Shown here one piece after another: positions 10,156-53,386 of a stretch of 64,000 bases of DNA. How positions within the stretch are numbered: the stretch's first letter is position 1; each line of letters starts with the position of its first letter. Source of the stretch: a virus; IMG/VR virus record IMGVR_UViG_3300036766_000644, positions 112,685 to 176,684 of that record. The stretch is one strand, 5' to 3'. Under the pieces are notes generated by a model, which was not told the origin of the DNA, did no database searches, and was given only the letters and a program-made list of their open reading frames with translations. Both the position numbers and the translations under genes were made by a program.

Positions 10156-10846
10156 GGTTCCCTGCCTGCGCTCGCTTGATCGCGGATTCGATGAGCGTCT
10201 TCTGGTAGCTGAGCTGCCCCTGCGTGATACCGAGCTTCTTCATGATGGCAGCACCAGCTAGCCGCGGCTTGCCTTGGTACCCCGCGGTGTACTCGAAGAT
10301 GCTCTTCTGCAGGGGTGTCAGGTCGTGGTAGATGAAGTCGGTGAGGTGGTCATCCACATCCTCTGACTCCGGATGATCCTCAGACTCCACGAACTCCTTC
10401 CGCTGGCTCTGCCGTTGGAACGTCTCCAGCTTCTTCACGCCCCACCCCAGGTGATCGGCGAGCTCTTCGTTCGTAGGCTCCCGCCCGTGCCGGTCCTTCA
10501 GGTCGTTCATCGCTGTGTGGTAGGAGTGGAACAAAAGATTCTTCGTCTCAGAGAGTCGTGCCGTGTTCTGCGTGGCGTAGACGACGCGTGAGAGCTTGGG
10601 CAGGCGGCTGGCAATGTACGTCGAGAGCGCCGCGCCCATGTCGGGGTTGTACGTCTCGAAGGCCTCCACGGCGAGGCGCTTGGCCTCCCCCTCGAGGTAG
10701 CTGCGGGACATGGAGGGGGCCCACTTGTTCACTTCTCGCAGGAGTAGAGGGTTCATCTGCGTCAGCAGCTTCTGGAGATCGTCGGGAGCTCGCGTCTTCT
10801 TCCAGCGGCGCCAGAGCTCGAGGTCGTTTGTCTTGAGCGGGTTCAT
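10148..10846 (-). CDS. sigma-70 family RNA polymerase sigma factor-like protein
   Basis: The region-2-like segment EAFETYNPDMGAALSTYIASRL compares with the consensus FDPERGYKFSTYATWWIR. The region-4-like HTH is LTPLQKSIFEYTAGYQGKPRLAGAAIMKKLGITQGQLSYQKTLIESAIKRA. The in-frame ATG at 10846 overlaps the stop of the upstream 871-aa gene as ATGA, and this start is preferred over the track start at 10906. Confidence 0.5.
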   Translation of the reverse strand: MNPLKTNDLELWRRWKKTRAPDDLQKLLTQMNPLLLREVNKWAPSMSRSYLEGEAKRLAVEAFETYNPDMGAALSTYIASRLPKLSRVVYATQNTARLSETKNLLFHSYHTAMNDLKDRHGREPTNEELADHLGWGVKKLETFQRQSQRKEFVESEDHPESEDVDDHLTDFIYHDLTPLQKSIFEYTAGYQGKPRLAGAAIMKKLGITQGQLSYQKTLIESAIKRAQAGNHV

Positions 10847-20019: not shown

Positions 20020-22266
20020 ATGCGGTGCACAGGCTGTGGCTTCAATCTGACGGTCGAAGATGTCCCCAAGGACAGGCATTGTAACGCGTGCGGTGGGCAT
20101 GTCGTGTTCGACGCAGACGATTTTCTTTTGCGTCAGCACGGGGCTCCTGGGCGAGATATCCGCTCGGAGCAGGTGAAGATGGGTCGGTTGGTTGAGAAGG
20201 TGATTCGCGAACACGGCGTCGCCTTCATCGAAGCTCCCGTTGGCTCCGGGAAGTCCGATGCGTACGGCGTCCCTTCCATCAACACGGTGGCGAAGAACTC
20301 GGGGTACACCCTCAAGGGTCTGACGGGGACGTTACCCAGTAAACTGCAGGTGAAAGACCTGAAGCCGCGGATTGTCATCTCGACGGCTAAAAAGAATCTC
20401 CAACACCAGATCGCAGAGAAGGACCTCCCCTTCATCAAGGCACGGCACGGGGAGACGGGGATCGGGATCGCGATCCTCAAAGGCAAGGGCAACTACGCTT
20501 GCCGCCTGAAAGCGGATACGTCTCTCGAGCCGAAGGACAAAGCGCAGTTCACCGCGTGGCTCGACAAGACTCCCGGTGAAGATCTTTCTGATTTCCCGGG
20601 GCGTCGTCCTCCGTACCTCTTCGACGTGACCGCAGAAGATTGCGTCGGCAAGAGCTGTGAGTACGCCTACGATGAACCGGGCGTAGGCATCAAGTGCGGA
20701 TACTGGCGGGCCAAGGCGACTGCAGCCAAGGCCAGCATCATCGTCACCAATCACCACGTCGTGGCATACGACCTTCGGTTCGGTCCCGGCATCATCATCG
20801 GGCCGTACACGACGTTGATCCTGGACGAAGCGCACCAGGCGCCCTCTTCATTTAGGGCCGCGTTCTCGACGGTGGTGACGCAAGGAGCTCCGACTCGCAT
20901 CATTCGGCAGATGGACGCCGCGGGTATTCGTGGCGGCTTCGACACTGCGATCCGTGATGCGTGGAAGAACATGTTCGACCCGCTGGTGAGCACCGACGGG
21001 GAGATTCCGAAAGATCCCTTCGGCGCCGCAGGCACGGAGTCCGTAGCCATCCTGTCCGAGATGTCCGTAGCGGTGGCGAAGGAAGCGAATGACCTCGGCT
21101 GGTCTTCGTTGCCGGGCTGGGACATCACGCAGCTCCCGAACAAGAGCGCACGCACGCAGTTGATGGCCGTGTTGGCACTCAAGAAGAATCTCGAGCGCAC
21201 GACACAAGCACTGAACAACGCGAAGGATCCGGGCGACAACACGGTCCTCTACGTGAGCACGTCCGACAAGGGGCTGAAGCGCTTGACGCTGGCGCCTATC
21301 TCCGTCGGGAAGCTCGTCGGTCCCAAGCTCCAGATGATTCCTTCTGTCGTCATCACCAGCGCTACGATGGCGATCGGAGGGAAGTTCGAAGACGCGAAGT
21401 ACCAGCTCGGCCTCAACTGGGCGAGCTACAACGACGAAGAGGGCGCCCCTCAAGCACCCAAGGTCATCCACGAGCTCATCCTGGGGACCCCCTTCAACTA
21501 CGACAAGCAGGCGCTGCTCTACACGCCGAGGCACATTCCAATTCCTGTGGGGGCGACCTCGCCGGACCGGATGAAGTACATATCGGCCCTGATCAGCGAA
21601 TGTTCTCGACTCATCAAGGCGTCCAACGGCAATGCTTTCATCCTGTTCACCGCGAACCAGGACCTCAACGACGTTTACGAAGGGCTGCAGGAGGAAGGAC
21701 TCACGCAGCCTCTCATCGTCCAAGAGGAAGACGCCGCAGCGACGCTGAAGGTGTTCATGGCGACGCCGCACAGCGTTCTCTTGGGGGTCAAGAGCTTCTG
21801 GGAGGGCGTCGACGTACAAGGTCAGAAGCTACAGCTCGTGGTGATCACGAAGCTCCCCTTCCCCGCAGTGACCGATCCCGTGCTCCAGGCGAGGTCACGC
21901 CAGCTCATCGCGGAGCAGGTGGCCCAAGGGGTGTCGGCAGATACCGCGAAGGGCGCGGTGTTCAGCCGCCTCCAGATCCCGCACATGCTCACAGAGCTTC
22001 GGCAAGGCGCAGGTCGTCTTATCCGAGCGCGCACTGACCGCGGCGTCCTGGCCATCCTGGACTCGCGGATCTTCACCGGAAATTCGAAGGACAAGCCGAC
22101 TCCGACGCAGACGTCGTATCGGGGATACGGCAAGCTCGCCGCGGATGCGACGGGCTTCAACAACCACATCTTCGACTTCGAGGTCATCCAGCGGATGTTC
22201 GCGCAGTGGAACGAACGAGAGGAGGCACGCCGTGCAGCAGCGACGAAAAGTAATCCGCCACTCTGA
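20020..22266 (+). CDS. DinG/Rad3(XPD)-like superfamily-2 DNA helicase with Fe-S domain and N-terminal zinc ribbon
   Basis: Walker A is APVGSGKS and the DEAH box is LILDEAHQ. The four cysteines come from GNYACRLK, EDCVGKSCEY and IKCGYW, placed like an Fe-S insertion. The N-terminus has CxxC..CxxC (MRCTGCG...CNACGG). The ORF is 748 aa. Confidence 0.7.
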   Translation: MRCTGCGFNLTVEDVPKDRHCNACGGHVVFDADDFLLRQHGAPGRDIRSEQVKMGRLVEKVIREHGVAFIEAPVGSGKSDAYGVPSINTVAKNSGYTLKGLTGTLPSKLQVKDLKPRIVISTAKKNLQHQIAEKDLPFIKARHGETGIGIAILKGKGNYACRLKADTSLEPKDKAQFTAWLDKTPGEDLSDFPGRRPPYLFDVTAEDCVGKSCEYAYDEPGVGIKCGYWRAKATAAKASIIVTNHHVVAYDLRFGPGIIIGPYTTLILDEAHQAPSSFRAAFSTVVTQGAPTRIIRQMDAAGIRGGFDTAIRDAWKNMFDPLVSTDGEIPKDPFGAAGTESVAILSEMSVAVAKEANDLGWSSLPGWDITQLPNKSARTQLMAVLALKKNLERTTQALNNAKDPGDNTVLYVSTSDKGLKRLTLAPISVGKLVGPKLQMIPSVVITSATMAIGGKFEDAKYQLGLNWASYNDEEGAPQAPKVIHELILGTPFNYDKQALLYTPRHIPIPVGATSPDRMKYISALISECSRLIKASNGNAFILFTANQDLNDVYEGLQEEGLTQPLIVQEEDAAATLKVFMATPHSVLLGVKSFWEGVDVQGQKLQLVVITKLPFPAVTDPVLQARSRQLIAEQVAQGVSADTAKGAVFSRLQIPHMLTELRQGAGRLIRARTDRGVLAILDSRIFTGNSKDKPTPTQTSYRGYGKLAADATGFNNHIFDFEVIQRMFAQWNEREEARRAAATKSNPPL

Positions 22267-28128: not shown

Positions 28129-28468
28129 GGGCCTGAATTGGACTCGATTGGGACCGTAAGATCTAGGCGCGTGCCGAGCTGGTTCACAAGCTCGTAAATC
28201 CAAGAGGACAAAACCAATAAAAGCCAACGACAACGTTGACTTCCCGCAGTACGCGCTCCGCGCAGCCTGAGGGACATCTGTGAGGTAGGAGCTCGAGTAG
28301 CTTACAGGTGCAACACACGAGCAAACGCGAAGAGGCTTCTCGGCCAGGTAATCGGCCTCTGGCGACATAGCAGAACGACCTGGTAGGACCCCGCCACGGG
28401 TAGTGGCTACGCACGTAGTGACGAAGACCAGAAAGTTTCAAGACCCCGGTTCGATTCCGGGCAGGTCC
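28129..28468 (+). ncRNA. ssrA: tmRNA (transfer-messenger RNA, SsrA), one-piece
   Basis: The 5' end GGGCCUGAAUUGGACUCGAUUGGGAC parallels the GGGGCUGAUUCUGGAUUCGACGGGA class of tmRNA 5' ends. The 5' acceptor strand gggcctg pairs with the 3' strand caggtcc, including a G3:U70 wobble, the alanine identity element. The 3' end has the T-arm cccgg-ttcgatt-ccggg followed by caggtcc, a discriminator A, and then CA; there is no genomic CCA. The internal reading frame gcc aac gac aac gtt gac ttc ccg cag tac gcg ctc cgc gca gcc tga encodes ANDNVDFPQYALRAA followed by a stop. Its ANDN start and Y-A-L near the end are typical of proteobacterial tags. The segment gcgtgccgag...ctcgtaaa resembles the pseudoknot-1 region of enterobacterial tmRNA. 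Confidence 0.85.
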
Positions 28469-28477
28469 ACATAGTTG

Positions 28478-35776: not shown

Positions 35777-36515
35777 AGCTCGGCGCTGTTGGCTGCTTCA
35801 TCAGGTGCGACAGCGACGTCCCCGGGGGCGGCTTGCCCTTCGGCTTCAAGACTGTAGCGAGGACCAGCTTGTTGTCCTTGCCTACGGTCTTGAAGGCAGC
35901 AACCGCCGCGGTGTTACCGCTGGCGTCCTTCATCGGGAGGTAATAGCGCCCAGGGGACACGTCCAGCTTGATCGCCTGTGACCGAAGCTGTGCTAGCACG
36001 TCCGGAGGGAAGTCCGCGTTGATGCGCTCCTTCAAGCGGTCATCTGCGTGGTCCGCCATCTTCGGGGCGTCGTAGTCTATGAACCGCGGATCGACTTGAG
36101 GGTGATGCTGTTTGGGCGCAGTGAGCCCTTGCAGTGCCATGTTGGTGAGCATGCTCGCCCCCATGCCCTTGTACCCGCCCAGGTAGCCGCCCAGCGTATC
36201 AGAGACCCCGCCGATTAAACCCTGGCGAAGCTTGTCCCCCTTGGGGGCCATCATCATGTTGAGCGCCATGCTCGAGAGGCCCTGCGTCGTACCTGAAGCT
36301 GCCCGGGTAGGCATGGGCGGCTCGGCGTCAGCCTTCTTGCTGAAGACAGCCAACGCCGCGGCAGCACCGCGGTCGTACGCCTTCTTCACGTGCTGCGGGA
36401 GCGACTTCTTGTTCTTCGTCGCATGCTCCCACTCGTGCACCGTCGCCTTAGAGATCTCTCCGCGCGCCGCCTTGGCGTGGAACAGCCTACGCTGGGCCTC
36501 GCTCTTGAAAGGCAT
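35775..36515 (-). CDS. protein with DUF3008-like N-terminus (SEAQRRLFHAKAARGE motif) and Gly-rich C-terminus
   Basis: The N-terminus MPFKSEAQRRLFHAKAARGEISKATVHEWEHATK matches my recollection of the DUF3008 family signature. The rest is Gly/Ala/Met-rich. Confidence 0.4.
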   Translation of the reverse strand: MPFKSEAQRRLFHAKAARGEISKATVHEWEHATKNKKSLPQHVKKAYDRGAAAALAVFSKKADAEPPMPTRAASGTTQGLSSMALNMMMAPKGDKLRQGLIGGVSDTLGGYLGGYKGMGASMLTNMALQGLTAPKQHHPQVDPRFIDYDAPKMADHADDRLKERINADFPPDVLAQLRSQAIKLDVSPGRYYLPMKDASGNTAAVAAFKTVGKDNKLVLATVLKPKGKPPPGTSLSHLMKQPTAPS

Positions 36516-36520
36516 CGCGG

Positions 36521-37795
36521 TTACCGGAAGTACGTAGCAAGTGCGTCGTCAGCGCCCGCCTGGTAGATCATTGAGCTTTTCTTGACGCGGACCTGAGGCT
36601 GGGCGCGTGCTTTGACCTCAGCAGGTTCTTTACGCGGCACCTTCCCCCCTTTACCTCCAATGGACGCGTCAATCGTCTGCGCTTTCTGCTTCAAGCTCAT
36701 CGGAGGTTTCGGTTCTGAGCTGCGGAGCTTGCCCTCAACTCCAGGGGACACCGAAGGTTCAGGGGCCGAGGGCTCACCCGGAGAACCCTTCGCCCACTCG
36801 ACGGCCTTACGCCCCTTCTCTACGACTTTCTTGGCAGCGCCGCCGACCTGCCCCGCTACTTGCTTCCCCTTCTCGACGACTTTTCCGGCCCCAGCCATCA
36901 CCGGCTCAGCGACGCCGCGGTACATCTGTCCCGCGTTTGTGTCAGCGCCCATCAGGTTCTTGTGGCCCTCTACTGCTTTTGTCCCTAGGACGGCCGCTGT
37001 CCCCAGGCCTCCAAGGATCTTCTTCTTGTTGTCGTACAGCAGCTTGGCGAGATCCTGCGCATGCCCTACGACCGGGTGTGGCGGCATCGCTACAGGGTCC
37101 ACGCCCATACCCTGGCGTAGATCGTTCGCTGCCCCGCGGATGCTCCCTCCGACGCCCTTCTGGTAGGCGTTGACGAGCCCGCCTCCCATGAGTTTCCCGC
37201 GAGTGTTCATCAGGGTGTGGTGCAGCCCGCCTGCGAGCGCAGCACCGCCACCGAGCATCAACGCTGTGTTGAGAGCGCTCGAGCCGTCGTCCCGATTGTC
37301 GTGCCCGTACTGGCCGTAGTACTCCGCCCCAGGCGGCATGCGCCCGTACGGATCTCCGTACGCCAGCTTGAACTGCTCCACGGAGGCAACCTTCGCGGCA
37401 GGGGGCCGCGGCATCTTGACCTGGTTCATACCCATTTGTTTCCTGCCTTGGTTAGCAATGTGTCTGATGTCTGATCCGATACCGCGCTGGTAGGACTGCG
37501 CGAGGGGCGTCTTCTTGTCCCCCATCAGCATGCCATGCGCCGCGTGCATGGCAAGCATACCACCGCTGGCGAGAGCGACGTTCTTCAGCGTGTCCGCCGT
37601 GTCGTCGCTCATCGAGTGGCCTGCAGCCGAAAGTAGCGCCGTCGGAATTGCCACAGCCGCCGCAGGGAGTACCGCGCCTTGAACGCTACTGATCGCGCGC
37701 TTCTTTGTCTCGGGGTCAAGCCCGCCCCACAGACCCAGCTGCGGACGACTCCACGGCCACGCGAGCTTGAACTGTTCCGCCGTCTTGTTTTTCAT
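36521..37795 (-). CDS. Gly/Ala/Met/Lys-rich low-complexity protein (424 aa) with internal duplications
   Basis: Internal repeats EQFKLAWPWSRPQLG / EQFKLAYGDPYGRMPPG and SYQRGIGSDIRHIANQGRKQMGMNQV / AYQKGVGGSIRGAANDLRQGMGVDPV. Strong codon bias. Confidence 0.45.
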   Translation of the reverse strand: MKNKTAEQFKLAWPWSRPQLGLWGGLDPETKKRAISSVQGAVLPAAAVAIPTALLSAAGHSMSDDTADTLKNVALASGGMLAMHAAHGMLMGDKKTPLAQSYQRGIGSDIRHIANQGRKQMGMNQVKMPRPPAAKVASVEQFKLAYGDPYGRMPPGAEYYGQYGHDNRDDGSSALNTALMLGGGAALAGGLHHTLMNTRGKLMGGGLVNAYQKGVGGSIRGAANDLRQGMGVDPVAMPPHPVVGHAQDLAKLLYDNKKKILGGLGTAAVLGTKAVEGHKNLMGADTNAGQMYRGVAEPVMAGAGKVVEKGKQVAGQVGGAAKKVVEKGRKAVEWAKGSPGEPSAPEPSVSPGVEGKLRSSEPKPPMSLKQKAQTIDASIGGKGGKVPRKEPAEVKARAQPQVRVKKSSMIYQAGADDALATYFR

Positions 37796-38262
37796 GCGGC
37801 TCCCCCGGGGAGGCCATGCTGTTCCCCCACATGTCCTGGCATTGGCCCGACGGCGGGACCTTTGGCTCCGCGATTGTAGTTCGTGATCCCGGTGGGGGCA
37901 GGCTTACTTTTCGAGAGGCGATCCATGCCTTCATCCACAGCGGCGCCAGCCAACAGCCCAGCCCCGCCCGGGATCGCCGCTGTCCCCGCGGCTCCGAGAG
38001 CTCTAGCTGCTCCCGTTTGAAAGTTTTCACCGCTTGCGATGCTGCCAATGGCTGACCCGCCAGCGGCTAGCGCCATTCCTGGGAGAGTCCCTACAACGGG
38101 CACAACGCCAGCAGCTCTCCCGAGCCACTTCATGGCATTCCCACCCCATTTGGCGGCGCGCCCCGCTAGCGCGCCCCAATTGACAGCTTCTTTCGTCAGC
38201 CCGTAGGCCCCAAGAGCGGTGTACTCGCCGTGGTCGTACGCCGCCTTGGTGAGGTCAAACAT
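37792..38262 (-). CDS. Gly/Ala-rich protein (156 aa)
   Basis: ATGA coupling with the downstream gene. Low-complexity AGGA-rich product. Confidence 0.4.
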   Translation of the reverse strand: MFDLTKAAYDHGEYTALGAYGLTKEAVNWGALAGRAAKWGGNAMKWLGRAAGVVPVVGTLPGMALAAGGSAIGSIASGENFQTGAARALGAAGTAAIPGGAGLLAGAAVDEGMDRLSKSKPAPTGITNYNRGAKGPAVGPMPGHVGEQHGLPGGAA

Positions 38263-38297: not shown

Positions 38298-38762
38298 CTA
38301 CCGGTTACGGCCTTTACCGAAGAACGGTGCCTTCGTCGCGGCAGGGGCAGGGGCCTCTTCCACGACGGGGGCGGCTACCGGCGTCTCCTCGGGTACCGGG
38401 GCGGGCTCCTCGACAGGGGGAGCTACGGGCTCCGGCACCGGCTCAGGCACTACGACAGGCTCAGGCGGCGGAGGCGGGGGAGGAGGAACTACGACCGGCG
38501 CGGGAGGCGTGACGGCGACAGCTGCGTCGGCGACGGAGTATTTCAGCCACCCGACGTTCGTCAGCTTGTCGAGGCCTTCCTTGAGCTGGCGAAGCTGGGC
38601 GTCGGTGACATCGACAGCTTTTGTTTCTTTCGCCGGGAGGGTGATCGTGATTATCGAGGGATCCCCTACGATGATCGAAGATGCGAACGTGCTGGTAAGC
38701 GTCAGCTTAGGCATGGGTAGATCCTTTGGTTGTACGAATGGTGCAGGTTTTACAGGGCTCAT
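38298..38762 (-). CDS. Pro/Glu/Val-rich protein (154 aa) with polyproline tract
   Basis: PPPPPPPPEPVVVPEPVPEPVAPPVEEPAPVPEE tract. The minus strand is preferred over the overlapping plus ORF because of the operon context. Confidence 0.4.
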   Translation of the reverse strand: MSPVKPAPFVQPKDLPMPKLTLTSTFASSIIVGDPSIITITLPAKETKAVDVTDAQLRQLKEGLDKLTNVGWLKYSVADAAVAVTPPAPVVVPPPPPPPPEPVVVPEPVPEPVAPPVEEPAPVPEETPVAAPVVEEAPAPAATKAPFFGKGRNR

Positions 38763-38934
38763 CGTACCGGCGCAAGAGGTACAGCAGGAACTCTTTCAAG
38801 TGTTCGCGTCGGTACAAATCCGCCAGGGGTATTCCGTTTTCTACCGCGTGGTCGATCAGGTTAAAGAAACGATCCACCCTCTCTTCGGGAGCTAGTGAAT
38901 CGTCTTTCCACGCGTAGATTCCGTTGAGGGGCAC
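38707..38934 (-). CDS. hypothetical protein (75 aa)
   Basis: Short ORF overlapping the start of the downstream gene. Confidence 0.3.
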   Translation of the reverse strand: MPLNGIYAWKDDSLAPEERVDRFFNLIDHAVENGIPLADLYRREHLKEFLLYLLRRYDEPCKTCTIRTTKGSTHA

Positions 38935-38947
38935 GCAGAAGTATAGA

Positions 38948-39448
38948 CTACTCTTCTTGCTTCTCCGCCAAGGGGATGGGGAAAAGGAGCTCCCAGCACT
39001 CAGGTGCTTTCAGTACGATGCCGAACTCCTTCAGGGCCTCCCCAGCAGCAGCGTCATCGTCGATGATCAGGAAGTTGTTGTCCCGATTCTCCAGCCCTTG
39101 TCGGAAGTTCAGTAGCTGTTCCCGCTTGTACTCCGCGGCGTTGAGCATGTTCCCGTTTGGGCGCATCAACAGGAGCGTGTCCGGCAGCGTGATGTTCAGC
39201 TTCTCCAGGAGCCACCGCATCGTAGCGTCCCGCAGGTCCTCGTGCCGCCCAGTGAGGATGACGAGGTCGTACTTCAAAGCCTGTAGCTGCTCGAGGACTC
39301 GCTCTGCCCCGGCGACGACAGGATCTTTGATGACCCGGTCCGGAGATAGGAACGAGTCCCAGTCTTTCGGCTCCTTCTCCACGAAGTGCGCTCGGTGGGC
39401 ATTGTCAGCGAGGGTCTGGTCTAGATCTAGAACGATGAACATGGTCAA
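38948..39448 (-). CDS. HAD-superfamily phosphatase
   Basis: Motif I is VLDLDQTL, DxDxT. It is followed by a downstream Thr/Gly and a Lys, and then the Asp-rich FLIIDDD as motif IV. 166 aa. Confidence 0.6.
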   Translation of the reverse strand: MTMFIVLDLDQTLADNAHRAHFVEKEPKDWDSFLSPDRVIKDPVVAGAERVLEQLQALKYDLVILTGRHEDLRDATMRWLLEKLNITLPDTLLLMRPNGNMLNAAEYKREQLLNFRQGLENRDNNFLIIDDDAAAGEALKEFGIVLKAPECWELLFPIPLAEKQEE

Positions 39449-39678
39449 CCTTTGACTTTCTTTTTACGGCTTGCGTACTTCTTCTGGTGCTTACGAGCTT
39501 GCGCCAATCGCAACTCGCGCTCTTCCGGGGTCTCGTTCTTCAGTTTCTCGGCGTATCTCTCTCGGTAGTACTTCTTCGCTTCGTCGTGGTTCCGCCGGTA
39601 CCATGCTCTCCAAGCTGCTCGGGATCTAGCCTTTGTTTCTTCGGTTTTTCCCACCGTAGCTTCCTTTCTGCGCTTCAT
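39445..39678 (-). CDS. small basic protein (77 aa)
   Basis: Arg/Lys-rich helical ORF. ATGA overlap with the HAD gene. Confidence 0.35.
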   Translation of the reverse strand: MKRRKEATVGKTEETKARSRAAWRAWYRRNHDEAKKYYRERYAEKLKNETPEERELRLAQARKHQKKYASRKKKVKG

Positions 39679-39838
39679 AGAATGTTTGCGCTTGTTCGAG
39701 GAGCGCCGTCTCCGCTTTGATGAACTTGACCCTGTCTTCGATCTTCAATGACAGGCTTGCTTTTAGACGCCACGCTCCGAAAGACATCGCCGCTCGGATC
39801 AGCTTCTGCTCAGGGCTTAGCATGGGGCATCTCCTCAA
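39626..39838 (-). CDS. hypothetical protein (70 aa)
   Basis: Short ORF within the operon. Confidence 0.3.
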   Translation of the reverse strand: MRRCPMLSPEQKLIRAAMSFGAWRLKASLSLKIEDRVKFIKAETALLEQAQTFYEAQKGSYGGKNRRNKG

Positions 39839-40097
39839 GAAGTTCGCGAGTCGCCCAGTCGAGTGGCGGGCCCATGCTGTCTTTGAAGGGCAGGTCTAGC
39901 TGGTTGCGGTACACGCCCCCATCAGGGAAACGCAGCTCCCAGAGCGTCGATCCGGTGTTGGTCTTTCCCGACAGCCAGTGCTTACCTTTGTGCTGCCACA
40001 GGGTGTCCAGACCTACAGCCCACGACGGCCAGTCACTCGGGGTAACGCTTTTCCACATAGGTGCTCCTAAGGACAGCGAGGAGCCCTCTCGTACCAT
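39810..40097 (-). CDS. hypothetical protein (95 aa), Trp-rich
   Basis: ORF with codon bias downstream of the helicase. Confidence 0.35.
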   Translation of the reverse strand: MVREGSSLSLGAPMWKSVTPSDWPSWAVGLDTLWQHKGKHWLSGKTNTGSTLWELRFPDGGVYRNQLDLPFKDSMGPPLDWATRELLEEMPHAKP

Positions 40098-40113: not shown

Positions 40114-41580
40114 TCAATCGTTTTCAGGCTGACGCAGCATTTGCCGAACCTGTTGGTTTAGTTGCTCTTTGCGGGAGCCCATTTCATCGAGGTACTCATC
40201 GACGCCGTACCCAGGCTTCCGAAGGCCTGTACGCTCCAGGAGCCCCTGCGGAGCCCGCGTGGCGAGGTAGCGCTGGACCAGCACCTTCCGCTCATCCTCA
40301 GGCAACGCAGCGTGGCTCTTGTAACGGATCCCTCGTCCGATGACTTGCTTCAACTTCTCCTGATTCCAGTGTGGCTCGAGCAGCTGAATGAGGCGCGTCC
40401 CCTTGAGGTCAAGACCCTCGCCGCCAGCGCTCGACAGGAGCAGCGCTTTCAGCTTGTTGTCGTTGTAGTCCTTGACCATCTGGTCGCGGGTCGCACGAGC
40501 CATGCTTCCGGTGAACGACCCATGTGGGATACCGAGCTCCTCGAGCTTCTTCTTGTACGGGTCGATCCCCGACTCAAGGTAGTGCGAGTAGACGATTGCC
40601 TTGGCGTTCGGGTTCTTCTCCAACATCTTCTGGAGCTCCTGAACGGCACGGTCAATCTTCGGCTGGTTCGCTGGTTCGACGCTGGTGTCGAACCCCCGGG
40701 TCGTATTCGAGATTTGCCGGACACCGCTCAGGAATGAGTTGAGCTGCTTGGCCTCCGCTTTCGTGGGCGGGAGGTTCTGCAGAACTTTGTTCCGCACCCA
40801 GCTTGGTTGATCCGCGGTCACGTGCGAATAGAGCTTCATTTGCCCCGAGGTCATCGGTACGCGGACTGTCTCGTCTTCTCGTGTCGGGAAGTTCTCTGTG
40901 CTCCCGGGGTGGTAGTCGACGTACTTGTCGAGTGCGTGCTGGAGGTACCCGGTGCTCCGAGGGTTGAGGCGTGTTTGGTACGACGCCGGGGTACCCCTCA
41001 GGCGGTCCCAGAGCCCTCGTTTGTTGGGTACGTCCATCAGGAAGCGCTGGGTAAACGCGTCGGGGTCTTCGGGAAGGATTGACCGGCCCGCCACGAAGTT
41101 GATCGGCCCTGCGACGTCGGAAGGATGGTTGTAGAGGAGTGACCCCGTAAGGGCGAGTCGCTTCTCCGCAGGAGACGCCTTGAGACCCGCTCGAGCCTTC
41201 CCTGCGTTTCTGATTCGATGCGCCTCATCAACGATCAGGAGTGGTTGGTGCAGCCCCGCCCCTTCGTTTCGTGCGACCCCTTCGATGCTCTGTAGGTGGG
41301 ACGGCAGCGGCTTGTTCGTGTGAGCTTTGATCTCCTTGCTGTAGTTCGACTGAAGGGCTGCAGGAGTGACTACATCGGACGGAAGGCCGAGCGCCTCCTG
41401 CACCGCGATGCTGGTCAACGTCTTTCCAGAGCCGAGTCCGTGCGCAGCTACGAGTCCTGGCTGGTCTTCGTCTTCCATGCGGTCTACGACCCGCTGCTGG
41501 TGGGGCTTCAGCTTCGTGGTGAGCTTGGCGATCTTGAACCGCTCAAGCATGTGCGTGCTGGTCATCGGTTCCTCCGCCAC
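40114..41580 (-). CDS. SNF2/DEAH-family superfamily-2 helicase
   Basis: Motif I AAHGLGSGKTLTS. DEAH box LIVDEAHRIRN. Helicase C-terminal motifs LSSAGGEGLDL and QVIGRGIRYKS. Confidence 0.65.
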   Translation of the reverse strand: MAEEPMTSTHMLERFKIAKLTTKLKPHQQRVVDRMEDEDQPGLVAAHGLGSGKTLTSIAVQEALGLPSDVVTPAALQSNYSKEIKAHTNKPLPSHLQSIEGVARNEGAGLHQPLLIVDEAHRIRNAGKARAGLKASPAEKRLALTGSLLYNHPSDVAGPINFVAGRSILPEDPDAFTQRFLMDVPNKRGLWDRLRGTPASYQTRLNPRSTGYLQHALDKYVDYHPGSTENFPTREDETVRVPMTSGQMKLYSHVTADQPSWVRNKVLQNLPPTKAEAKQLNSFLSGVRQISNTTRGFDTSVEPANQPKIDRAVQELQKMLEKNPNAKAIVYSHYLESGIDPYKKKLEELGIPHGSFTGSMARATRDQMVKDYNDNKLKALLLSSAGGEGLDLKGTRLIQLLEPHWNQEKLKQVIGRGIRYKSHAALPEDERKVLVQRYLATRAPQGLLERTGLRKPGYGVDEYLDEMGSRKEQLNQQVRQMLRQPEND

Positions 41581-41821
41581 ATACGGTGCAGGTGCCCTCG
41601 GCGTGCCCCAAGCTCACGTTGGCCTCCGTACGCAATACCGGCTCCTTCGTTCCTGCGTCCAGGTACAGGGTAGCATTCCCCTGGATCTCCACGTACGACG
41701 TTTCGATGCGTCGCCCGTCAGCGTACTGCACCAGGAATGACGTCTTCTTGGGGAGACGTTTGATCGAAATCTTCTTGACCTTCTCGTCTCCTACCGAACG
41801 CTTCGTGCGCCTAGGACTCAT
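41543..41821 (-). CDS. hypothetical protein (92 aa) with C-terminal CxxC
   Basis: ORF between the receiver-domain gene and the helicase. It overlaps both neighbours slightly. Confidence 0.35.
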   Translation of the reverse strand: MSPRRTKRSVGDEKVKKISIKRLPKKTSFLVQYADGRRIETSYVEIQGNATLYLDAGTKEPVLRTEANVSLGHAEGTCTVCGGGTDDQHAHA

Positions 41822-42167
41822 CGCCTACCGCCTTGTACAGTTCGTGGAGCCCGAACGGTTTACTCAGTAGCTCCGCGGCCACGGTCTTCTTAGCTCGGAT
41901 TTCCGCGGCATTCAGCACACCGGACATGATGACCACCCGGATTCCTGCCAGGTACCCTCCGAGGCGCAGCACCTCTAGCATCTCGAGCCCATCGCTGTTG
42001 GGCATGGAGATGTCGGTCAAGAGAACGTCGGGCTGGTGCAGAATGAATCGTGCCGTGCCGTCCACGCCGTCTTCTGCTTCGAGCACGGTCCACCCGTGCT
42101 TCTCCAAAGCCAGGTGTACGAACTTTCTGATGGACTCGTCGTCATCGACGACCAGCACGGTTTTCAC
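41811..42167 (-). CDS. stand-alone CheY-like response-regulator receiver domain
   Basis: It carries the acidic pocket VVDDDE and the phospho-acceptor Asp in LLTDISMP. VVIMSG occupies the conserved Thr/Ser position, and the conserved Lys sits in LSKPF. 118 aa. First gene of the leftward operon. Confidence 0.65.
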   Translation of the reverse strand: MKTVLVVDDDESIRKFVHLALEKHGWTVLEAEDGVDGTARFILHQPDVLLTDISMPNSDGLEMLEVLRLGGYLAGIRVVIMSGVLNAAEIRAKKTVAAELLSKPFGLHELYKAVGDES

Positions 42168-42242
42168 CCCTCAAGTGTAGGCCTTCCCGCCCGTAAAAGC
42201 TGGCCCTTTTGGGTATAAGCCCCTGAACCAAAGGAGGCTGCA

Positions 42243-42503
42243 TTGACGATCCACATATCGAAGGATGGAACGCCGACCCTGTTCGACGGTCCGAAGGCAG
42301 TCAATTTTTTTCGCATGAACGCCCTGCTCAGCGGCATGCGGTTGGAGCTCCGGTCCGGGATGAAGCTGTCCCGTGGGCCGTCTTGCTTCGCTCGTGTGAA
42401 GAAGGAGTACGGCCTCAAGGGGAACAAGCAGAAGTTGATCGAGCAGTTCGAGAAGCTGGTCGCCGCGGAGAACAAGACGATGGAGTACAAGCACGATGCC
42501 TAA
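42243..42503 (+). CDS. hypothetical protein (86 aa)
   Basis: TTG start preceded by AAGGAGG. Charged helical product. Confidence 0.4.
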   Translation: MTIHISKDGTPTLFDGPKAVNFFRMNALLSGMRLELRSGMKLSRGPSCFARVKKEYGLKGNKQKLIEQFEKLVAAENKTMEYKHDA

Positions 42504-43140
42504 CTGGTGCGAAAACATCCTGAAGGTGGAAGGTCCGGCTAAAGAGATCTCAAAGTTCAAGAAGCTGGCGAGGGGACGCGGGCCCAATCCACAGCCAAAC
42601 GACCCGATTCTACTGCTGTCACTACACGCCCTCGTTCCGCAGCCCGCGGAGTTAAAAGAAGAGGGATCCGCCTGGTACGCCTGGCGCTTCAAAAACTGGG
42701 GCACGAAGTGGGAGGTGGAGGCGCGGTTCATCAGCGAAGACAAGAAGTGCCTCGAGTACGGCTTCGACTCCGCATGGACTCCCCCGACGGAGTGGTTGAC
42801 GCAGGTCGGCCCGAAGTTCCCGAAGCTTTCTTTTCGCCTCTGGTACGCTGAAGGAGGCTGTTACTTCGCAGGCGTGTGTACCGTCGAAGATGACAACGTC
42901 TCTACCGAGGAGCTTGACTACGTAGAGGCGCAGATCCAAGAGCGGGGGAGCTACCAAGTACAGTGCGGCTACTGCGACGTTGAGATCGAGATTACGAGCA
43001 AGGACGCTGTCCGTATCTGTGATGAGTGCCTACAGCACCGCTGCGCAAACTGCCAGAAAGAAGACGACGTACACGTCGACGGGAAATGCCCCTTCGACGC
43101 CACGGTGTTCAAGCACGTTGACCCGAAGAAGGTAACATGA
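42496..43140 (+). CDS. Cys-His motif family protein (paralogue 2 of 5), with additional Cys pairs
   Basis: C-terminus QHRCANCQKEDDVHVDGKCPFDATVFKH. Upstream CGYCD ... ICDEC. Confidence 0.5.
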   Translation: MPNWCENILKVEGPAKEISKFKKLARGRGPNPQPNDPILLLSLHALVPQPAELKEEGSAWYAWRFKNWGTKWEVEARFISEDKKCLEYGFDSAWTPPTEWLTQVGPKFPKLSFRLWYAEGGCYFAGVCTVEDDNVSTEELDYVEAQIQERGSYQVQCGYCDVEIEITSKDAVRICDECLQHRCANCQKEDDVHVDGKCPFDATVFKHVDPKKVT

Positions 43141-46426: not shown

Positions 46427-46499
46427 TCCTCGATAGCTCAGTTGGTAGAGCGCGTGACTGTTAATCACGATGTCCCTGGTTCGAGCCCAGGTCGAGGAG
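46427..46499 (+). tRNA. tRNA-Asn (anticodon GTT)
   Basis: Acceptor tcctcga pairs with tcgagga. Anticodon loop ctgttaa. T-arm cctgg-ttcgagc-ccagg. Confidence 0.85.
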
Positions 46500-46503
46500 C
46501 AAG

Positions 46504-46576
46504 GAGATCGTAGCTCAGTAGGTAGAGCATCTGACTTTTAATCAGAGGGTCGCGGGTTCGAAACCCGCCGGTCTCA
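46504..46576 (+). tRNA. tRNA-Lys (anticodon TTT)
   Basis: Acceptor gagatcg pairs with cggtctc, including one G:U. Anticodon loop cttttaa. T-arm gcggg-ttcgaaa-cccgc. Confidence 0.85.
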
Positions 46577-46583
46577 AGTAGTT

Positions 46584-46655
46584 GGACGCTTAGCTCAGCG
46601 GCAGAGCAATGCCTTTACACGGCGTGGGTCGGGGGTTCGAACCCCTCAGCGTCTA
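46584..46655 (+). tRNA. tRNA-Val (anticodon TAC)
   Basis: Acceptor ggacgct pairs with agcgtct. Anticodon stem atgcc/ggcgt with loop tttacac. T-loop ttcgaac. Confidence 0.75.
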
Positions 46656-46745
46656 CATGAACAGAGAAACTGCATTCGAGTACTTGATGGTGTTTTCCCC
46701 GGTGATCTTCGTCATTCTACTGATGCTGTTTTTCTAGGAGGCCGC

Positions 46746-46943
46746 ATGCTCGAGTTCCGTAATCCGATCCCTGTCCTGGTTGAGGGTAAAGAGGGCTACG
46801 CCATCTACGTCACCAACGGAGGCACCTTTGAGCACGACATCTGGTGCGTCGTGATGTGCGACGACCGCACGGTGAAGCACCTCCGCACTGACCAGGTGAA
46901 GATCCACAAGAGCGGTACCTTCGACCCGCCAGCCGCGGACTGA
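46746..46943 (+). CDS. hypothetical protein (65 aa) between tRNA genes
   Basis: AGGAGG RBS 6 nt upstream of the ATG. Good codon bias. Confidence 0.45.
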   Translation: MLEFRNPIPVLVEGKEGYAIYVTNGGTFEHDIWCVVMCDDRTVKHLRTDQVKIHKSGTFDPPAAD

Positions 46944-46947
46944 CCTC

Positions 46948-47021
46948 GGGCCAGTAGCTCAAATGGTTAGAGCAGCGCACTCATAATGCGTCGGTTCCCG
47001 GTTCAAGTCCGGGCTGGCCCA
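46948..47021 (+). tRNA. tRNA-Met, or Ile2 if lysidinylated (anticodon CAT), elongator type
   Basis: The acceptor gggccag/ctggccc is fully paired. Anticodon loop ctcataa. T-arm ccggg-ttcaagt-cccgg. Confidence 0.8.
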
Positions 47022-47038
47022 CAACCCCAAGGAGCCCC

Positions 47039-50090: not shown

Positions 50091-52181
50091 ATGATCCCTA
50101 ACACCGCCGTACGGCTGGTCTCTTCGAGTCCAGTCGCTGCGAGCGCTGAGTTCGGCATTTCGCTGAAGGACAGCGCTCACATCATGACCATCCTGCGGGA
50201 CACCTTGTACTCCGACAAGGTGCTCGCAGTGCTTCGAGAGTACAGCGCGAACGCCTGGGACTCTCACAGGGACGCCGGAAAAGGCGACGTTCCGATCAAG
50301 GTAACACTCCCCACGGCCATGGACCCGTCGCTGGTCATCCGTGACTTCGGGGAGGGCCTGTCCCCCGACGAGGTGTTCAACATCTACACGCAGTACGGCT
50401 CGAGCACGAAGCGCGGGAGTGACAACGCCGTCGGTATGCTCGGGATCGGCAGCAAGTCCGGTTTCGCGTATTCTGACAGCTTCACGGTCACGTCGTACCA
50501 CGAAGGAAAGAAGAGCACGTACGTCGCGGTGCTCGACAAGTCTGAGAAGGGCGTCATCAACCTGCTGTGTGATGAGCCTTGCGGGGATGAGACCGGCATC
50601 GCAATCCAGATCGCAATTCGACCTGAAGACATCCGGGAGTTCACCCAGAAGGCGCAGAACCTCTTCCAGTACTTCATCCCGCGCCCCGACATCAACACGA
50701 CGCTCCCAAAGTTGCCCGCGGCCCAGGCGACTCTGAAGCACGGCGTCATCTACGAGCGGACCGACAACTACTACGGCGAGCGTCCGTGGGTAGCGGTCAT
50801 GGGCTGCGTCTCCTACAACGTCAATCTCGATCAAGTTAGTGAGAGTGACTCAACGAAGTTCGGCGGAGTCGCCAACTTTCTGCGCAACATCTCCGGGGCG
50901 CTGTACTTCGACATCGGGGAGGTCCAGGTCAGTGCTTCTCGAGAAGAGCTCAAGTACAGCGCTGAGACGAAGCTGGCGCTGGTCAAGAAGTTCAACGATT
51001 TGGTCGATGAGTACGTACGCCAGTCCCTGGATACCATCCTCAACGGCGGCTTCTCCTCCTGGGAGAAGCGCGTACGATTCCAAGTGCTGGCAAAGCTGCA
51101 CCTGCCCGTACCCGACGATTGTGCAACGCTGCTTGAAGGTTCGATCTCCGTTAAGGAGAAGGTACCCAAGAGCTTTGTCATCTTGCAGAACAGGACGCCC
51201 GTATCGAGTATCCGAATCAACGAAAACACGCGGTTTATCCTGTGGGATGACCGCCGGAGTCGGTCCGGGTTCCAGGACCTCACGGGATCGGACTACCTCG
51301 TCAACCCAGTCACGAAGGACGACAAAGGCAAGGCGATCAAGCTCGACTGGCCAGCCGTCGAGGCGGACCTGGCGGCGATGTGCGCGGCGGTAGACATCAC
51401 CGGCGTCCCCACCCTCAAGCTGTCTTCTTTTACCTGGGCGATGCCTACCAAGGTGGGCGGGCGCAAGATCAACCCGAAGCACCGGACACAGGTGTTCCGG
51501 TACAACCCCGAGGGCGGCTACTGCAAGCCCTGGTCTGACTGCTGGGAACCCGAGGACCGCGTCCCGGACCCGTCTGACGTCTTCACCATCATCTCCAACT
51601 TCCGCACCGTCGGCTTCGACATGGGGGCATACTACAAGGAAGATTCTTTGCTCGCAGAGGAGCTCGGGGGAGTTATCCCGCCGATCTACGGCTACAAGAC
51701 CACCGATAAGAAGCCAGTTGAAGAGAAGGACTGCGTCGGTACGCCGTATCAAACATGGCGAGACTCATTCGTAGCCTCGCTCATCGCCCCAGGTCTTCAG
51801 GTCAAGCTGGACCACTGGCACTGGTCTTCCGTTTTCTCCGAGGGGAGATACAACTGGAACTACCCCCGCGTAGGCAGTGACACTGTAAAGAAATTGACGA
51901 AGATCCTTGGCCCGACGCATTCGATCACGGTTTTCGCCGAGAAGTACTCCGACGGTGGCGTCTACTGCCACGCGCATCCCCATCTGAGCCAGGCGCTGGA
52001 TAGGCTGTCTCGACGCTTACCCGTCCAGACGTTGAAAGACTCAGCCGCACAGAAAGAACTCAAGGCGATCTACGAGAAGTACCCATTGCTCAAGGCGACG
52101 GAAGAAACTTCTGTTTGCGAGCTGTGGGGCAAGCACTCCGAGCACTGGGCGCAATACGTCAAACTCATCGACGCAATCTAA
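50091..52181 (+). CDS. rIIA-like protein with N-terminal GHKL (HATPase_c) ATPase domain
   Basis: N-box EYSANAWDS, G1 box IRDFGEGL, G2 box GMLGIGSKSGF. 696 aa. An rIIB-sized gene follows directly. Confidence 0.5.
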   Translation: MIPNTAVRLVSSSPVAASAEFGISLKDSAHIMTILRDTLYSDKVLAVLREYSANAWDSHRDAGKGDVPIKVTLPTAMDPSLVIRDFGEGLSPDEVFNIYTQYGSSTKRGSDNAVGMLGIGSKSGFAYSDSFTVTSYHEGKKSTYVAVLDKSEKGVINLLCDEPCGDETGIAIQIAIRPEDIREFTQKAQNLFQYFIPRPDINTTLPKLPAAQATLKHGVIYERTDNYYGERPWVAVMGCVSYNVNLDQVSESDSTKFGGVANFLRNISGALYFDIGEVQVSASREELKYSAETKLALVKKFNDLVDEYVRQSLDTILNGGFSSWEKRVRFQVLAKLHLPVPDDCATLLEGSISVKEKVPKSFVILQNRTPVSSIRINENTRFILWDDRRSRSGFQDLTGSDYLVNPVTKDDKGKAIKLDWPAVEADLAAMCAAVDITGVPTLKLSSFTWAMPTKVGGRKINPKHRTQVFRYNPEGGYCKPWSDCWEPEDRVPDPSDVFTIISNFRTVGFDMGAYYKEDSLLAEELGGVIPPIYGYKTTDKKPVEEKDCVGTPYQTWRDSFVASLIAPGLQVKLDHWHWSSVFSEGRYNWNYPRVGSDTVKKLTKILGPTHSITVFAEKYSDGGVYCHAHPHLSQALDRLSRRLPVQTLKDSAAQKELKAIYEKYPLLKATEETSVCELWGKHSEHWAQYVKLIDAI

Positions 52182-52189
52182 AGGACACC

Positions 52190-53386
52190 ATGACAATCAC
52201 ACCTCCGCCGTACACCCTCACCAACGCATCGATCACCGTCGTCTGGGAGGGCAAGCCGCACACCGTGCAGAAGGGGTCTCCCAACTTCAATGCACTGCGT
52301 AAAGCCATCATCGAAGAGAAGTGGGCGGCCATCCCGAAGAACCTCACCGTCGCCAAGAGCATCAAGGACTGGGCGAAGGGCAAGTTCACCCTGGCGGACA
52401 ATGTCTTCTCGTTCGAAGGCATGCCTCTCCCCAGCGGCATCAACGGGCGCATCCTCAAGATGGCCACCTCGGGCGAAGATCCGACTCCGCTGTTCAAGTT
52501 CTGGGAGCGCCTGCATAAGAACCCCTCCATGCGCTCAGTGGAACAGCTCTGGCCCTTCCTCGACCAGAAGGGAATCCCTATCACCAAGGACGGCCATTTC
52601 CTGGCGTACAAGGGGGTCAAGAGCGACTTCATGGATGCTCACACGGGGACCATCAGCAACAAGCCTGGGACGAAGCACGTGATGCCTCGTAACCAGATCT
52701 CGGATGACCCGAACCATGCGTGCCACGAAGGGTTCCACGTCGGAGCTCTCGAGTACGCACGTACCTTCTCCCAGAGGGTCGTCATCTGCGAAGTGGACCC
52801 GGAGCACGTTGTCTGCGTGCCCTACGACTCGAGCCAGCAGAAGATGCGTGTCTGCGAGTACAAGGTCATCGGCAACCACAACGGAAGCTACATGTCCTCT
52901 ACGACGCACTCGGAAGAGACCGAGGAGGCAGAGACGAACGACGAGACGTTCAATGCCAAGGGAACGGCGGCTGACGCTCCCGCCGACTACGACGTGAACA
53001 ACGACTTCCTCGCAGAGCCTTGCGATGAGTGCGGCAGCAAGATCCCGCCGGACTGCACCTCGGAGGACAACAAGTACCACTCTCCGGAGTGCGGCCTCTA
53101 CAACCCGGATCTTCCAGAGGAAGAGGAGAAGAAGCCCGCGCCTGCGAAGCCTGCCAAGAAGACCGGCAAGCAGAAGAAGAAGGAGCACAAGGCCAAGAAG
53201 AAGGCGGGCAAGGTCATGGCGCAGAGCTTTGACAAGCTCAAGAAGATGGACATGGTCGGCCTCCTCAACGAGTCCCTCGACGCGCTGCGGGCCTACGCAG
53301 GCAAGGGCCTCCAGATCGTAGGAGCGTCGAAGATCCCTGGAGGCAAGACCGCCCTGGTGTCGGTCATCATGAAGACGAGGGGCTGA
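52190..53386 (+). CDS. rIIB-like protein (398 aa) with Lys-rich C-terminal tail
   Basis: ATG at 52190, 9 nt after the upstream stop. Glu/Lys-rich C-terminus EEEEKKPAPAKPAKKTGKQKKKEHKAKKKAGK. The call rests on position only. Confidence 0.35.
   Translation: MTITPPPYTLTNASITVVWEGKPHTVQKGSPNFNALRKAIIEEKWAAIPKNLTVAKSIKDWAKGKFTLADNVFSFEGMPLPSGINGRILKMATSGEDPTPLFKFWERLHKNPSMRSVEQLWPFLDQKGIPITKDGHFLAYKGVKSDFMDAHTGTISNKPGTKHVMPRNQISDDPNHACHEGFHVGALEYARTFSQRVVICEVDPEHVVCVPYDSSQQKMRVCEYKVIGNHNGSYMSSTTHSEETEEAETNDETFNAKGTAADAPADYDVNNDFLAEPCDECGSKIPPDCTSEDNKYHSPECGLYNPDLPEEEEKKPAPAKPAKKTGKQKKKEHKAKKKAGKVMAQSFDKLKKMDMVGLLNESLDALRAYAGKGLQIVGASKIPGGKTALVSVIMKTRG

Follow-up and report, generated by a model that had tools for sequence, protein, structure and literature searches.

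The 64,000-nt stretch of DNA analysed here (the window; positions 112,685 to 176,684 of the virus record IMGVR_UViG_3300036766_000644) encodes a receiver (REC) protein of 118 aa without an output domain at 41811-42167 on the minus strand. A 6.4-kb leftward block, in which consecutive genes overlap or are separated by gaps of at most 35 nt, has the receiver as its first gene, next to the presumed promoter. An initial annotation made from the letters alone had described the protein as a stand-alone receiver with all hallmark motifs, heading an operon with an SNF2 helicase, a HAD phosphatase, small basic proteins and Gly- and Pro-rich proteins. The open reading frames (ORFs) and Pfam domains bear out this gene content, all of it on the minus strand, together with the gene order and the tight spacing. 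The operon status of the block we infer from the spacing only.

The receiver ORF initiates at a GTG codon and its translation begins MKTVLVVDDDESIRK, followed by LLTDISMP, IMSG and LLSKPF. The Pfam family PF00072 (Response_reg) matches residues 4-114 over positions 1-110 of the 111-position profile (E=9.5e-20, 71.3 bits at a gathering score of 30.2), and no second domain was found in the Pfam scan of the protein. An AlphaFold2 model built from 33 orthologs has a mean predicted local distance difference test (pLDDT) score of 85.7, with strands and helices in the order β1α1-β5α5. Foldseek places Spo0F, the KdpE receiver, MicA, RssB, RR468 and CheY4 at the top of the structural matches (TM 0.80-0.87). 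The family profile searched against the PDB retrieved receiver domains exclusively, led by 3lte, RR468, RpaA, CheY and Spo0F. The non-receiver flavodoxin-like fold that the initial annotation had named as the alternative is thus ruled out by the model and by both sets of matches, all of them receivers. The active site comprises the acidic pocket D8/D9 in DDDE (residues 8-11), the phospho-acceptor D52, S82 at the Thr/Ser position and K103 followed by P104. Residues D8, D9, D10, D52, M55, P56, S82, G83, K103 and P104 are invariant in the alignment of the 33 orthologs. The catalytic quintet of a canonical receiver is present in full, as an acidic pair, Asp, Ser and Lys, together with the Pro. The aromatic switch position (K-3, equivalent to Tyr106 of CheY) is occupied by Leu100, which is conserved in at least 90% of the 33 orthologs. 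The protein is a bona fide canonical single-domain receiver with an intact phospho-acceptor pocket and is predicted to be phosphorylatable.

The receiver ORF represents a real gene rather than a chance ORF of GC-rich DNA, because its G+C content at third codon positions (GC3, 0.76) is similar to that of the adjoining genes and because the ratio of nonsynonymous to synonymous substitution rates (dN/dS) is 0.11-0.28 in pairwise comparisons with four phage relatives. Codon comparison thus indicates that the receiver is under purifying selection. An alternative start at GTG 42158 would yield 115 aa and give the GAGGGG upstream a proper Shine-Dalgarno (SD) spacing. The GTG at 42167 is favoured, because K2-T3 are conserved and because many orthologs have ATG at the first position.

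Orthologs of the receiver are confined to phages. A search of 5.8 billion proteins recovered about 49 orthologs at 55-98% identity, all stand-alone and 113-140 aa in length once spurious N-terminal extensions read from conserved upstream DNA were trimmed. Below this group, identity falls sharply to generic receivers at 42% or less, and members of the family are mutually at least 54% identical. The family forms one or two clusters in a 50%-clustered library of 1.84 billion proteins, where the match list is otherwise swamped by multi-receiver hybrid proteins. A scan of 185,579 species, one genome each, gave no donor or host signal, and the best cellular matches are 31-46% identical and scattered across Bdellovibrio, Pyrinomonadaceae, Rhizobiales, Lachnospiraceae and others. 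With cellular matches this distant and this scattered, the family appears phage-restricted with no visible donor or host. The carriers are uncultivated tailed phages, with relatives among IMG/VR and metagenome contigs of 168-190 kb. A Megablast of 10 kb against the isolated phages of INPHARED found no DNA-level relatives, and tblastn of the receiver against the same collection yielded best matches at 30-37% identity, many on host-looking records. A REC-EAL protein on contig L007 was rejected as a comparator viral receiver, as it adjoins an integrase and probably lies in a host flank. Among relatives, the receiver is the least conserved product of the block, with 54-71% identity versus 76-85% for the SNF2 protein, 59-83% for the 92-aa product of the adjoining gene (g92) and 68-79% for the HAD phosphatase. 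Taken together, the distribution indicates a resident accessory gene in one clade of uncultivated tailed phages of about 170-190 kb.

The description of the protein as CheY-like holds in the superfamily sense and not for CheY proper, because the CheY models score below cutoff and Leu100 stands at the Tyr106 position. The receiver falls below every NCBIfam equivalog cutoff, including those of CheY (PRK10610, 48.2 bits versus 189; CheY_Halo, 46 versus 200) and KdpE (59 versus 325). Che genes are also absent from the window and from the flanks of the relatives. An assignment as a CpdR equivalog was likewise rejected (NF046022, 66.4 bits at a cutoff of 180). The same applies to a Spo0F-type relay with its own Hpt or Spo0B partner, none being encoded in the window or in the flanks of relatives. 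Identity as a cREC protein was discarded as well, given that PF20274 shows no match at E<=1 and that hhalign of the family against the cREC of contig L012 reaches a probability of 1%.

The phosphoryl group of the receiver would need to be supplied from elsewhere. No Pfam match to HisKA, HATPase_c, Hpt, Spo0B-like, CheA, CheW, CheZ or MCP domains was found among the approximately 73 ORFs of the 64-kb window, which covers about one third of the phage genome, and the only GHKL match is rIIA. Precomputed Pfam lists contain no kinase, Hpt or Che genes within ±10 kb of the receiver in the relatives either. The phosphoryl donor would therefore lie in the host, as no phage kinase or Hpt protein was found near the receiver.

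Conservation is unevenly distributed across the receiver fold. The active-site loops are invariant across the family by per-element entropy. Among the helices, α2 varies least (mean entropy 0.50), and β5 and α5 are well conserved. Helix α1 is variable (1.34), and α4 is the most variable element (2.28); in the AlphaFold2 model, α4 is a short helix predicted with low confidence. In receivers, α1 is the usual kinase-docking helix and α4-β5-α5 the usual output face. Variable α1 and α4 around a fixed active site are the pattern expected of a sink that tracks differing host kinases, for which no conserved output is required. The pattern therefore slightly favours a host-directed sink or competitor over a regulator of the helicase.

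The second gene of the block, g92 (41543-41821, minus strand), encodes a basic, all-β protein of 92 aa with an invariant C-terminal CxxCGG.TDDQHAHA, as seen from the ORF list, the homologs and the AlphaFold2 model. The gene shares 11 nt with the 3' end of the receiver gene and, at its own 3' end, 23 nt with the beginning of the SNF2 ORF. The 31 homologs of g92 occur only in the phage clade of the receiver, with a mean column identity of 79%, and the gene is missing from the L006 and P0035 contigs. A role of g92 as a split output domain was considered and rejected, as the model is all-β (pLDDT 71) and no PDB fold match below E=0.2 was retrieved. The invariant tail is dual-coded with the beginning of the SNF2 gene (41543-41565, minus strand; ATG at 41565, MTSTHMLERF). 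Hence, part of its invariance may stem from the overlap rather than from a metal-binding role.

The SNF2-family ATPase is encoded at 40114-41580 on the minus strand. The ORF matches PF00176 (SNF2-rel_dom, 4e-11, 43 bits) and PF00271 (Helicase_C, 4e-17, 62.8 bits) and contains both motif I (GSGKT) and motif II (DEAH). PHROG 62, annotated as DNA helicase, is matched at 1.4e-38, and there is a weak match to a DarB-like PHROG. The sole sequence match in the PDB is vaccinia NPH-I (1.6e-8). The true start is probably the ATG at 41565, judging by the GGAGG ahead of it. Next follow three small ORFs of 95, 70 and 77 aa (g95, g70 and g77; 39445-40097, minus strand), which are conserved in relatives and had no family match in profile scans; g77 is strongly basic. 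The HAD phosphatase (38948-39448, minus strand) is a 166-aa protein of the PNKP type with the motif I DLDQT, supported by HAD_PNKP (1.7e-7), Acid_phosphat_B (1.2e-7) and PHROG 415, annotated as polynucleotide kinase (3.9e-21). A 75-aa ORF and a Pro-rich ORF (PPPPPPPPPEP...) occupy 38298-38934 on the minus strand. Both ORFs form a single in-frame gene in the relatives L002, L003, L005 and L006. In the window, a +1 frame change separates the two parts, where a TAA stop and the ATG of MPKLTL overlap near position 38714. This may reflect genuine division into two genes, programmed frameshifting or a mistake in the assembly. Two Gly-rich ORFs of 156 and 424 aa and a 246-aa ORF (g246) complete the block at 35775-38262 on the minus strand, with g246 (35775-36515) as the last gene. 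A G+C-rich hairpin at 35751-35770, with a T-run on the plus strand only, lies between the end of the block and convergent rightward genes.

Gene order places the receiver with the SNF2 gene in most lineages, and the evidence for a functional link is weak. The order receiver, g92, SNF2 and, further on, HAD phosphatase is kept in the contigs L002/L004, L003, L005, L006, L096 and P0035, with g92 absent where stated above. Receiver and SNF2 follow each other in this manner in seven of the eight lineages. In contigs that lack g92, SNF2 comes straight after the receiver: the two genes overlap by 8 nt in P0035 and are 27 nt apart in L006. The adjacency may simply be inherited, because the lineages are close relatives and syntenic over the whole 20 kb compared. 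The SNF2 family is also far wider than the receiver family, with more than 1364 matches at E<1e-10, many of them 52-63% identical and on contigs of 100-213 kb. In the four receiver-free lineages opened (SNF2 52-63% identical), no PF00072 gene was found beside SNF2. In L097, the lineage whose receiver diverges most (54% identity), the order is receiver-g92-g95-g70-g77 with no SNF2 in between. A fusion of a receiver to SNF2 was also looked for and rejected, as long SNF2 variants carry unrelated N-terminal extensions and never a receiver. SNF2 proteins from lineages with and without the receiver are told apart by two diagnostic alignment columns only, and no indel separates them.

A further link exists within the downstream genes. 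The C-terminal domain of g246, about 95 aa in length (residues ~150-245), forms the N-terminus of the SNF2 proteins P0115, P0116, P0120, P0124 and P0126 from more distant phages. The same domain heads a 1269-aa LigD_N and ligase protein (L012, 2148-2447), whose gene immediately precedes SNF2 on that contig, and a 1482-aa protein in L002 (15387-16193). These arrangements identify it, on domain composition, as a mobile N-terminal domain that provides a Rosetta-stone link within the block, and it may act as an adaptor or targeting domain. Further SNF2 homologs (P0092 in L005 at about 10630-12755, P0094, P0099 and P0130) carry N-terminal extensions of about 240 aa with an HExxH motif (HEMGH, HEVGH, HELGH) and Gly-rich stretches, for which, as for the g246-type extensions, no Pfam match was found. 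By analogy with polyvalent proteins, the HExxH extension resembles a peptidase of zincin-like type joined to SNF2. Across these phages, the mix of an SNF2 core, a zincin-like region, end-healing enzymes and a common adaptor domain recalls the polyvalent or DarB-type SNF2 modules (Iyer et al. 2017, PMC5512222), a likeness that concerns the helicase and not the receiver. The terms "receiver" and "REC domain" do not occur in that paper. In contrast to such modules, the SNF2 protein of the window is a separate, unfused protein of 483-488 aa without a methylase. In L012, a cREC_REC gene (PF20274, 1e-11; 7963-8301, minus strand) lies 600 bp from an SNF2 homolog that is 61% identical. Its neighbours are the LigD_N/ligase protein mentioned above, which also contains DUF5661, and a metallophosphatase, in a setting reminiscent of RNA or DNA end repair. 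On the 213-kb phage contig L014, the SNF2 homolog (6001-7497) is located downstream of a protein of more than 2106 aa (1-1274) that fuses RNA polymerase β-like (Rpb2) and β'-like (Rpb1) regions. A Peptidase_C39 gene is present on the same contig.

The region upstream of the receiver is a 75-bp divergent intergenic region (42168-42242), with the receiver on the left and genes for an 86-aa protein and a DUF1281_C protein on the right. The two rightward genes (42243-43140, plus strand) were recognized from ORFs, Pfam and relatives, with the second encoding a 214-aa Api92-like protein of ferredoxin-like type. The DUF1281_C gene is the sole constant neighbour of the receiver across all lineages seen. 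Two motifs in the intergenic region are conserved in the alignment with L002, L003, L005 and L006. The first, CTTATACCCAAAA at 42207-42219 on the minus strand, occurs once in the window and reads TATAAG, a -10-like sequence, on the plus strand. The second, CTACACTTG at 42172-42180 on the minus strand, lies immediately upstream of the receiver start and contains the -10-like hexamer TACACT. A generic sigma-70 scan found nothing at 42168-42242. The conserved motifs nonetheless mark the region as a putative promoter. CTACACTTG ends about 6 nt ahead of the receiver start codon, and the GAGGGG touches the start with zero spacer. Speculatively, the receiver could be translated from a leaderless mRNA. 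Amid structural genes at 10148-10906 on the minus strand, a 252-aa protein that matches Sigma70_r3 (2.3e-8) is a candidate phage sigma factor. The activity of such a protein may be the reason why generic sigma-70 scans find little in the window.

The gene content confirms the window as phage DNA, as proposed at the outset. The phage hallmarks rIIA (50091-52181) and rIIB (52115-53386) are found together with a DNA helicase matching a PHROG (20020-22266), VanY (9154-10155), Baseplate_J, the sigma-like protein and a head-decoration-like domain, and GC content is about 0.60 throughout. A full-length tmRNA is located at 28129-28472 on the plus strand (Rfam RF00023, 107 bits), with the unusual tag peptide ATHEQTRRGFSAR predicted by ARAGORN. 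A tRNA cluster follows the tmRNA, a second is located at 46427-47022, and the window contains eight tRNAs overall. An 899-aa protein with major vault protein (MVP) domains is encoded at 30662-33361 on the plus strand (MVP_shoulder 5.5e-21, Vault_3 1.5e-11, Vault 3.5e-4). Its gene has the highest GC3 in the window (0.88), and L003 and L096 encode homologs of 895 aa. A 2023 preprint (10.1101/2023.11.10.566534) reported MVPs of viral origin from gut phages.

What the receiver does during infection can be approached by weighing the observations on its surface, its distribution and its neighbours. The initial annotation had suggested a phosphate sink or decoy for host pathways or, alternatively, a regulator of the helicase. 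Of the two, a host-directed role fits the in silico evidence slightly better, with the link to the helicase weakened by the wide SNF2 family, the four receiver-free lineages, the L097 gene order and the lack of an indel. We tentatively suggest that the receiver serves as a host-directed phosphate sink or competitor, a plausible reading rather than a probable one, in which the phosphodonor and the target are presumed, as is the direction in which the receiver would act. The receiver would be expressed as the promoter-proximal gene of the co-directional block and would be phosphorylated from the host by a histidine kinase, a phosphorelay protein or acetyl phosphate. As a sink, or as a competitor of a host response regulator, it would then draw phosphoryl groups away and thereby damp the output of a host two-component or phosphorelay system in infection. 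Such a role is favoured because α1 and α4 are variable around a fixed active site, because the receiver evolves faster than its neighbours, because its distribution is that of an accessory gene and because the case for SNF2 is weak. Several points weigh against it. One is that no particular host kinase can be pointed to. Another is that even the closest cellular receivers share only about 40% identity with the phage protein, which rules out recent mimicry of a host regulator. The strong conservation of α2, α5 and β5 could mark a conserved partner, possibly of the phage, and the tight translational coupling apparent between the receiver, g92 and SNF2 would be compatible with a phage-internal role. 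With two thirds of the genome outside the window, a phage kinase could also be encoded elsewhere.

The conserved surfaces and the coupling could instead mean that the host-phosphorylated receiver binds g92, SNF2 or both and switches their activity, tying a DNA-handling or anti-defence module of SNF2, the PNKP-type phosphatase and g246 to the state of the host. This is a serious rival, if somewhat less likely than the sink. The gene order in seven of eight lineages, the proximity of receiver and SNF2 even without g92, the restriction of g92 to the clade of the receiver, and the conserved α2, β5 and α5 are all in agreement, as is the cohesion of the downstream genes as a functional unit with the g246 domain fused to SNF2 elsewhere. 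The same gene order loses weight where the lineages compared are close and syntenic throughout, and the large SNF2 family without adjoining PF00072 genes in four lineages, the L097 arrangement, the lack of REC-SNF2 fusions, the lack of receiver-specific features in SNF2 proteins (zero indels, two diagnostic columns) and the high variability of α4 speak against a switch of this kind. A broader version, which we consider unlikely, has the receiver as a phage-owned phospho-sensor of the host phosphorylation or energy state, gating the SNF2, end-healing phosphatase and adaptor-domain module via g92 or by direct contact; as part of the same unlikely proposal, the gated module would be related to split parts of virion-delivered polyvalent proteins. 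Single-domain receivers usually signal via protein contacts, and the conserved α2 and α5 surfaces could equally serve a conserved host target. Instead of draining phosphate, the receiver might act as a CpdR- or RssB-like adaptor, with phosphorylation governing its binding to a host protease, sigma factor or motor. CpdR is indeed the best NCBIfam model (66 bits), and RssB receivers rank high in both the fold and the sequence searches. The CpdR score is far under its cutoff of 180, though, the resemblance is generic to receivers and neither host nor target is identifiable, which makes an adaptor role decidedly unlikely. A phosphorylation-independent pseudo-receiver, acting only as a structural or scaffolding subunit, would account for the lack of a kinase in the window and for the nearly invariant Leu100 at the aromatic switch position. 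Pseudo-receivers typically lose the residues for Mg2+ binding and phosphotransfer, whereas all of these are invariant here in 33 orthologs at 54-98% identity, and we regard this explanation as very improbable. Least credible of all is a REC enzyme modelled on the cREC proteins of jumbo phages, which would work alongside the PNKP-type HAD phosphatase on phosphates of nucleic acids or nucleotides. The PF20274 gene near SNF2, the LigD/ligase protein and the metallophosphatase in L012 and the PNKP-type phosphatase in the block itself would fit such an activity, but the window receiver is a full-length canonical PF00072 domain with no match to PF20274 at E<=1 and an hhalign probability of 1%.

The implications differ among these explanations. 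If the receiver drains or reads host phosphoryl signals, the gene would represent a simple viral means to blind or eavesdrop on bacterial signalling. Control of the SNF2 module by the receiver would couple a DNA-handling machine of the phage to the physiology of its host. If the phospho-sensor proposal is true, a two-component receiver would have been wired into a phage machine for DNA protection or anti-defence. Regardless of the role, the family provides a clean test case: the protein is small and conserved, its active site is intact, kinase genes are absent nearby, and dozens of variants exist within a defined clade.

Among known systems, the receiver comes closest to the bacterial single-domain regulators Spo0F, RR468 of Thermotoga, CheY, DivK and CpdR. 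All share a (βα)5 fold of about 120 aa, the acidic pocket, Asp, Ser/Thr and Lys-Pro residues and the lack of an output domain, and the model aligns to Spo0F, RR468 and CheY4 at a TM of about 0.85. In contrast to these regulators, the window receiver is encoded by a phage, shares at most 44% identity with the cellular receivers recovered, has no partner kinase, Hpt or Che protein within the 64 kb, and carries a Leu at the aromatic switch together with a short and variable α4. The cREC domains of jumbo phages (PF20274; Iyer et al. 2021, PMC7824862) are likewise small REC-fold proteins of large phages located near nucleic-acid end-processing genes. They differ from the window protein, which is a canonical PF00072 receiver without a PF20274 match or profile similarity. 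Receivers have been annotated in phages before, including a CheY-like "class II AMG" (auxiliary metabolic gene) in Alteromonas phage V22 (PMC7289586) and two-component genes in phages of ammonia oxidisers (bioRxiv 10.64898/2026.05.02.722434). A literature search found no functional study of a phage single-domain receiver. The phage receiver profiles PHROG 731, which the window receiver matches at 1.4e-18, 5982 and 20458 span 227-1030 positions and combine a receiver with other domains, whereas the window receiver stands alone. Rather than a new type of system, the family thus adds a well-defined member to the annotated phage receivers, as a separate and tight group in one clade of phages of about 190 kb.

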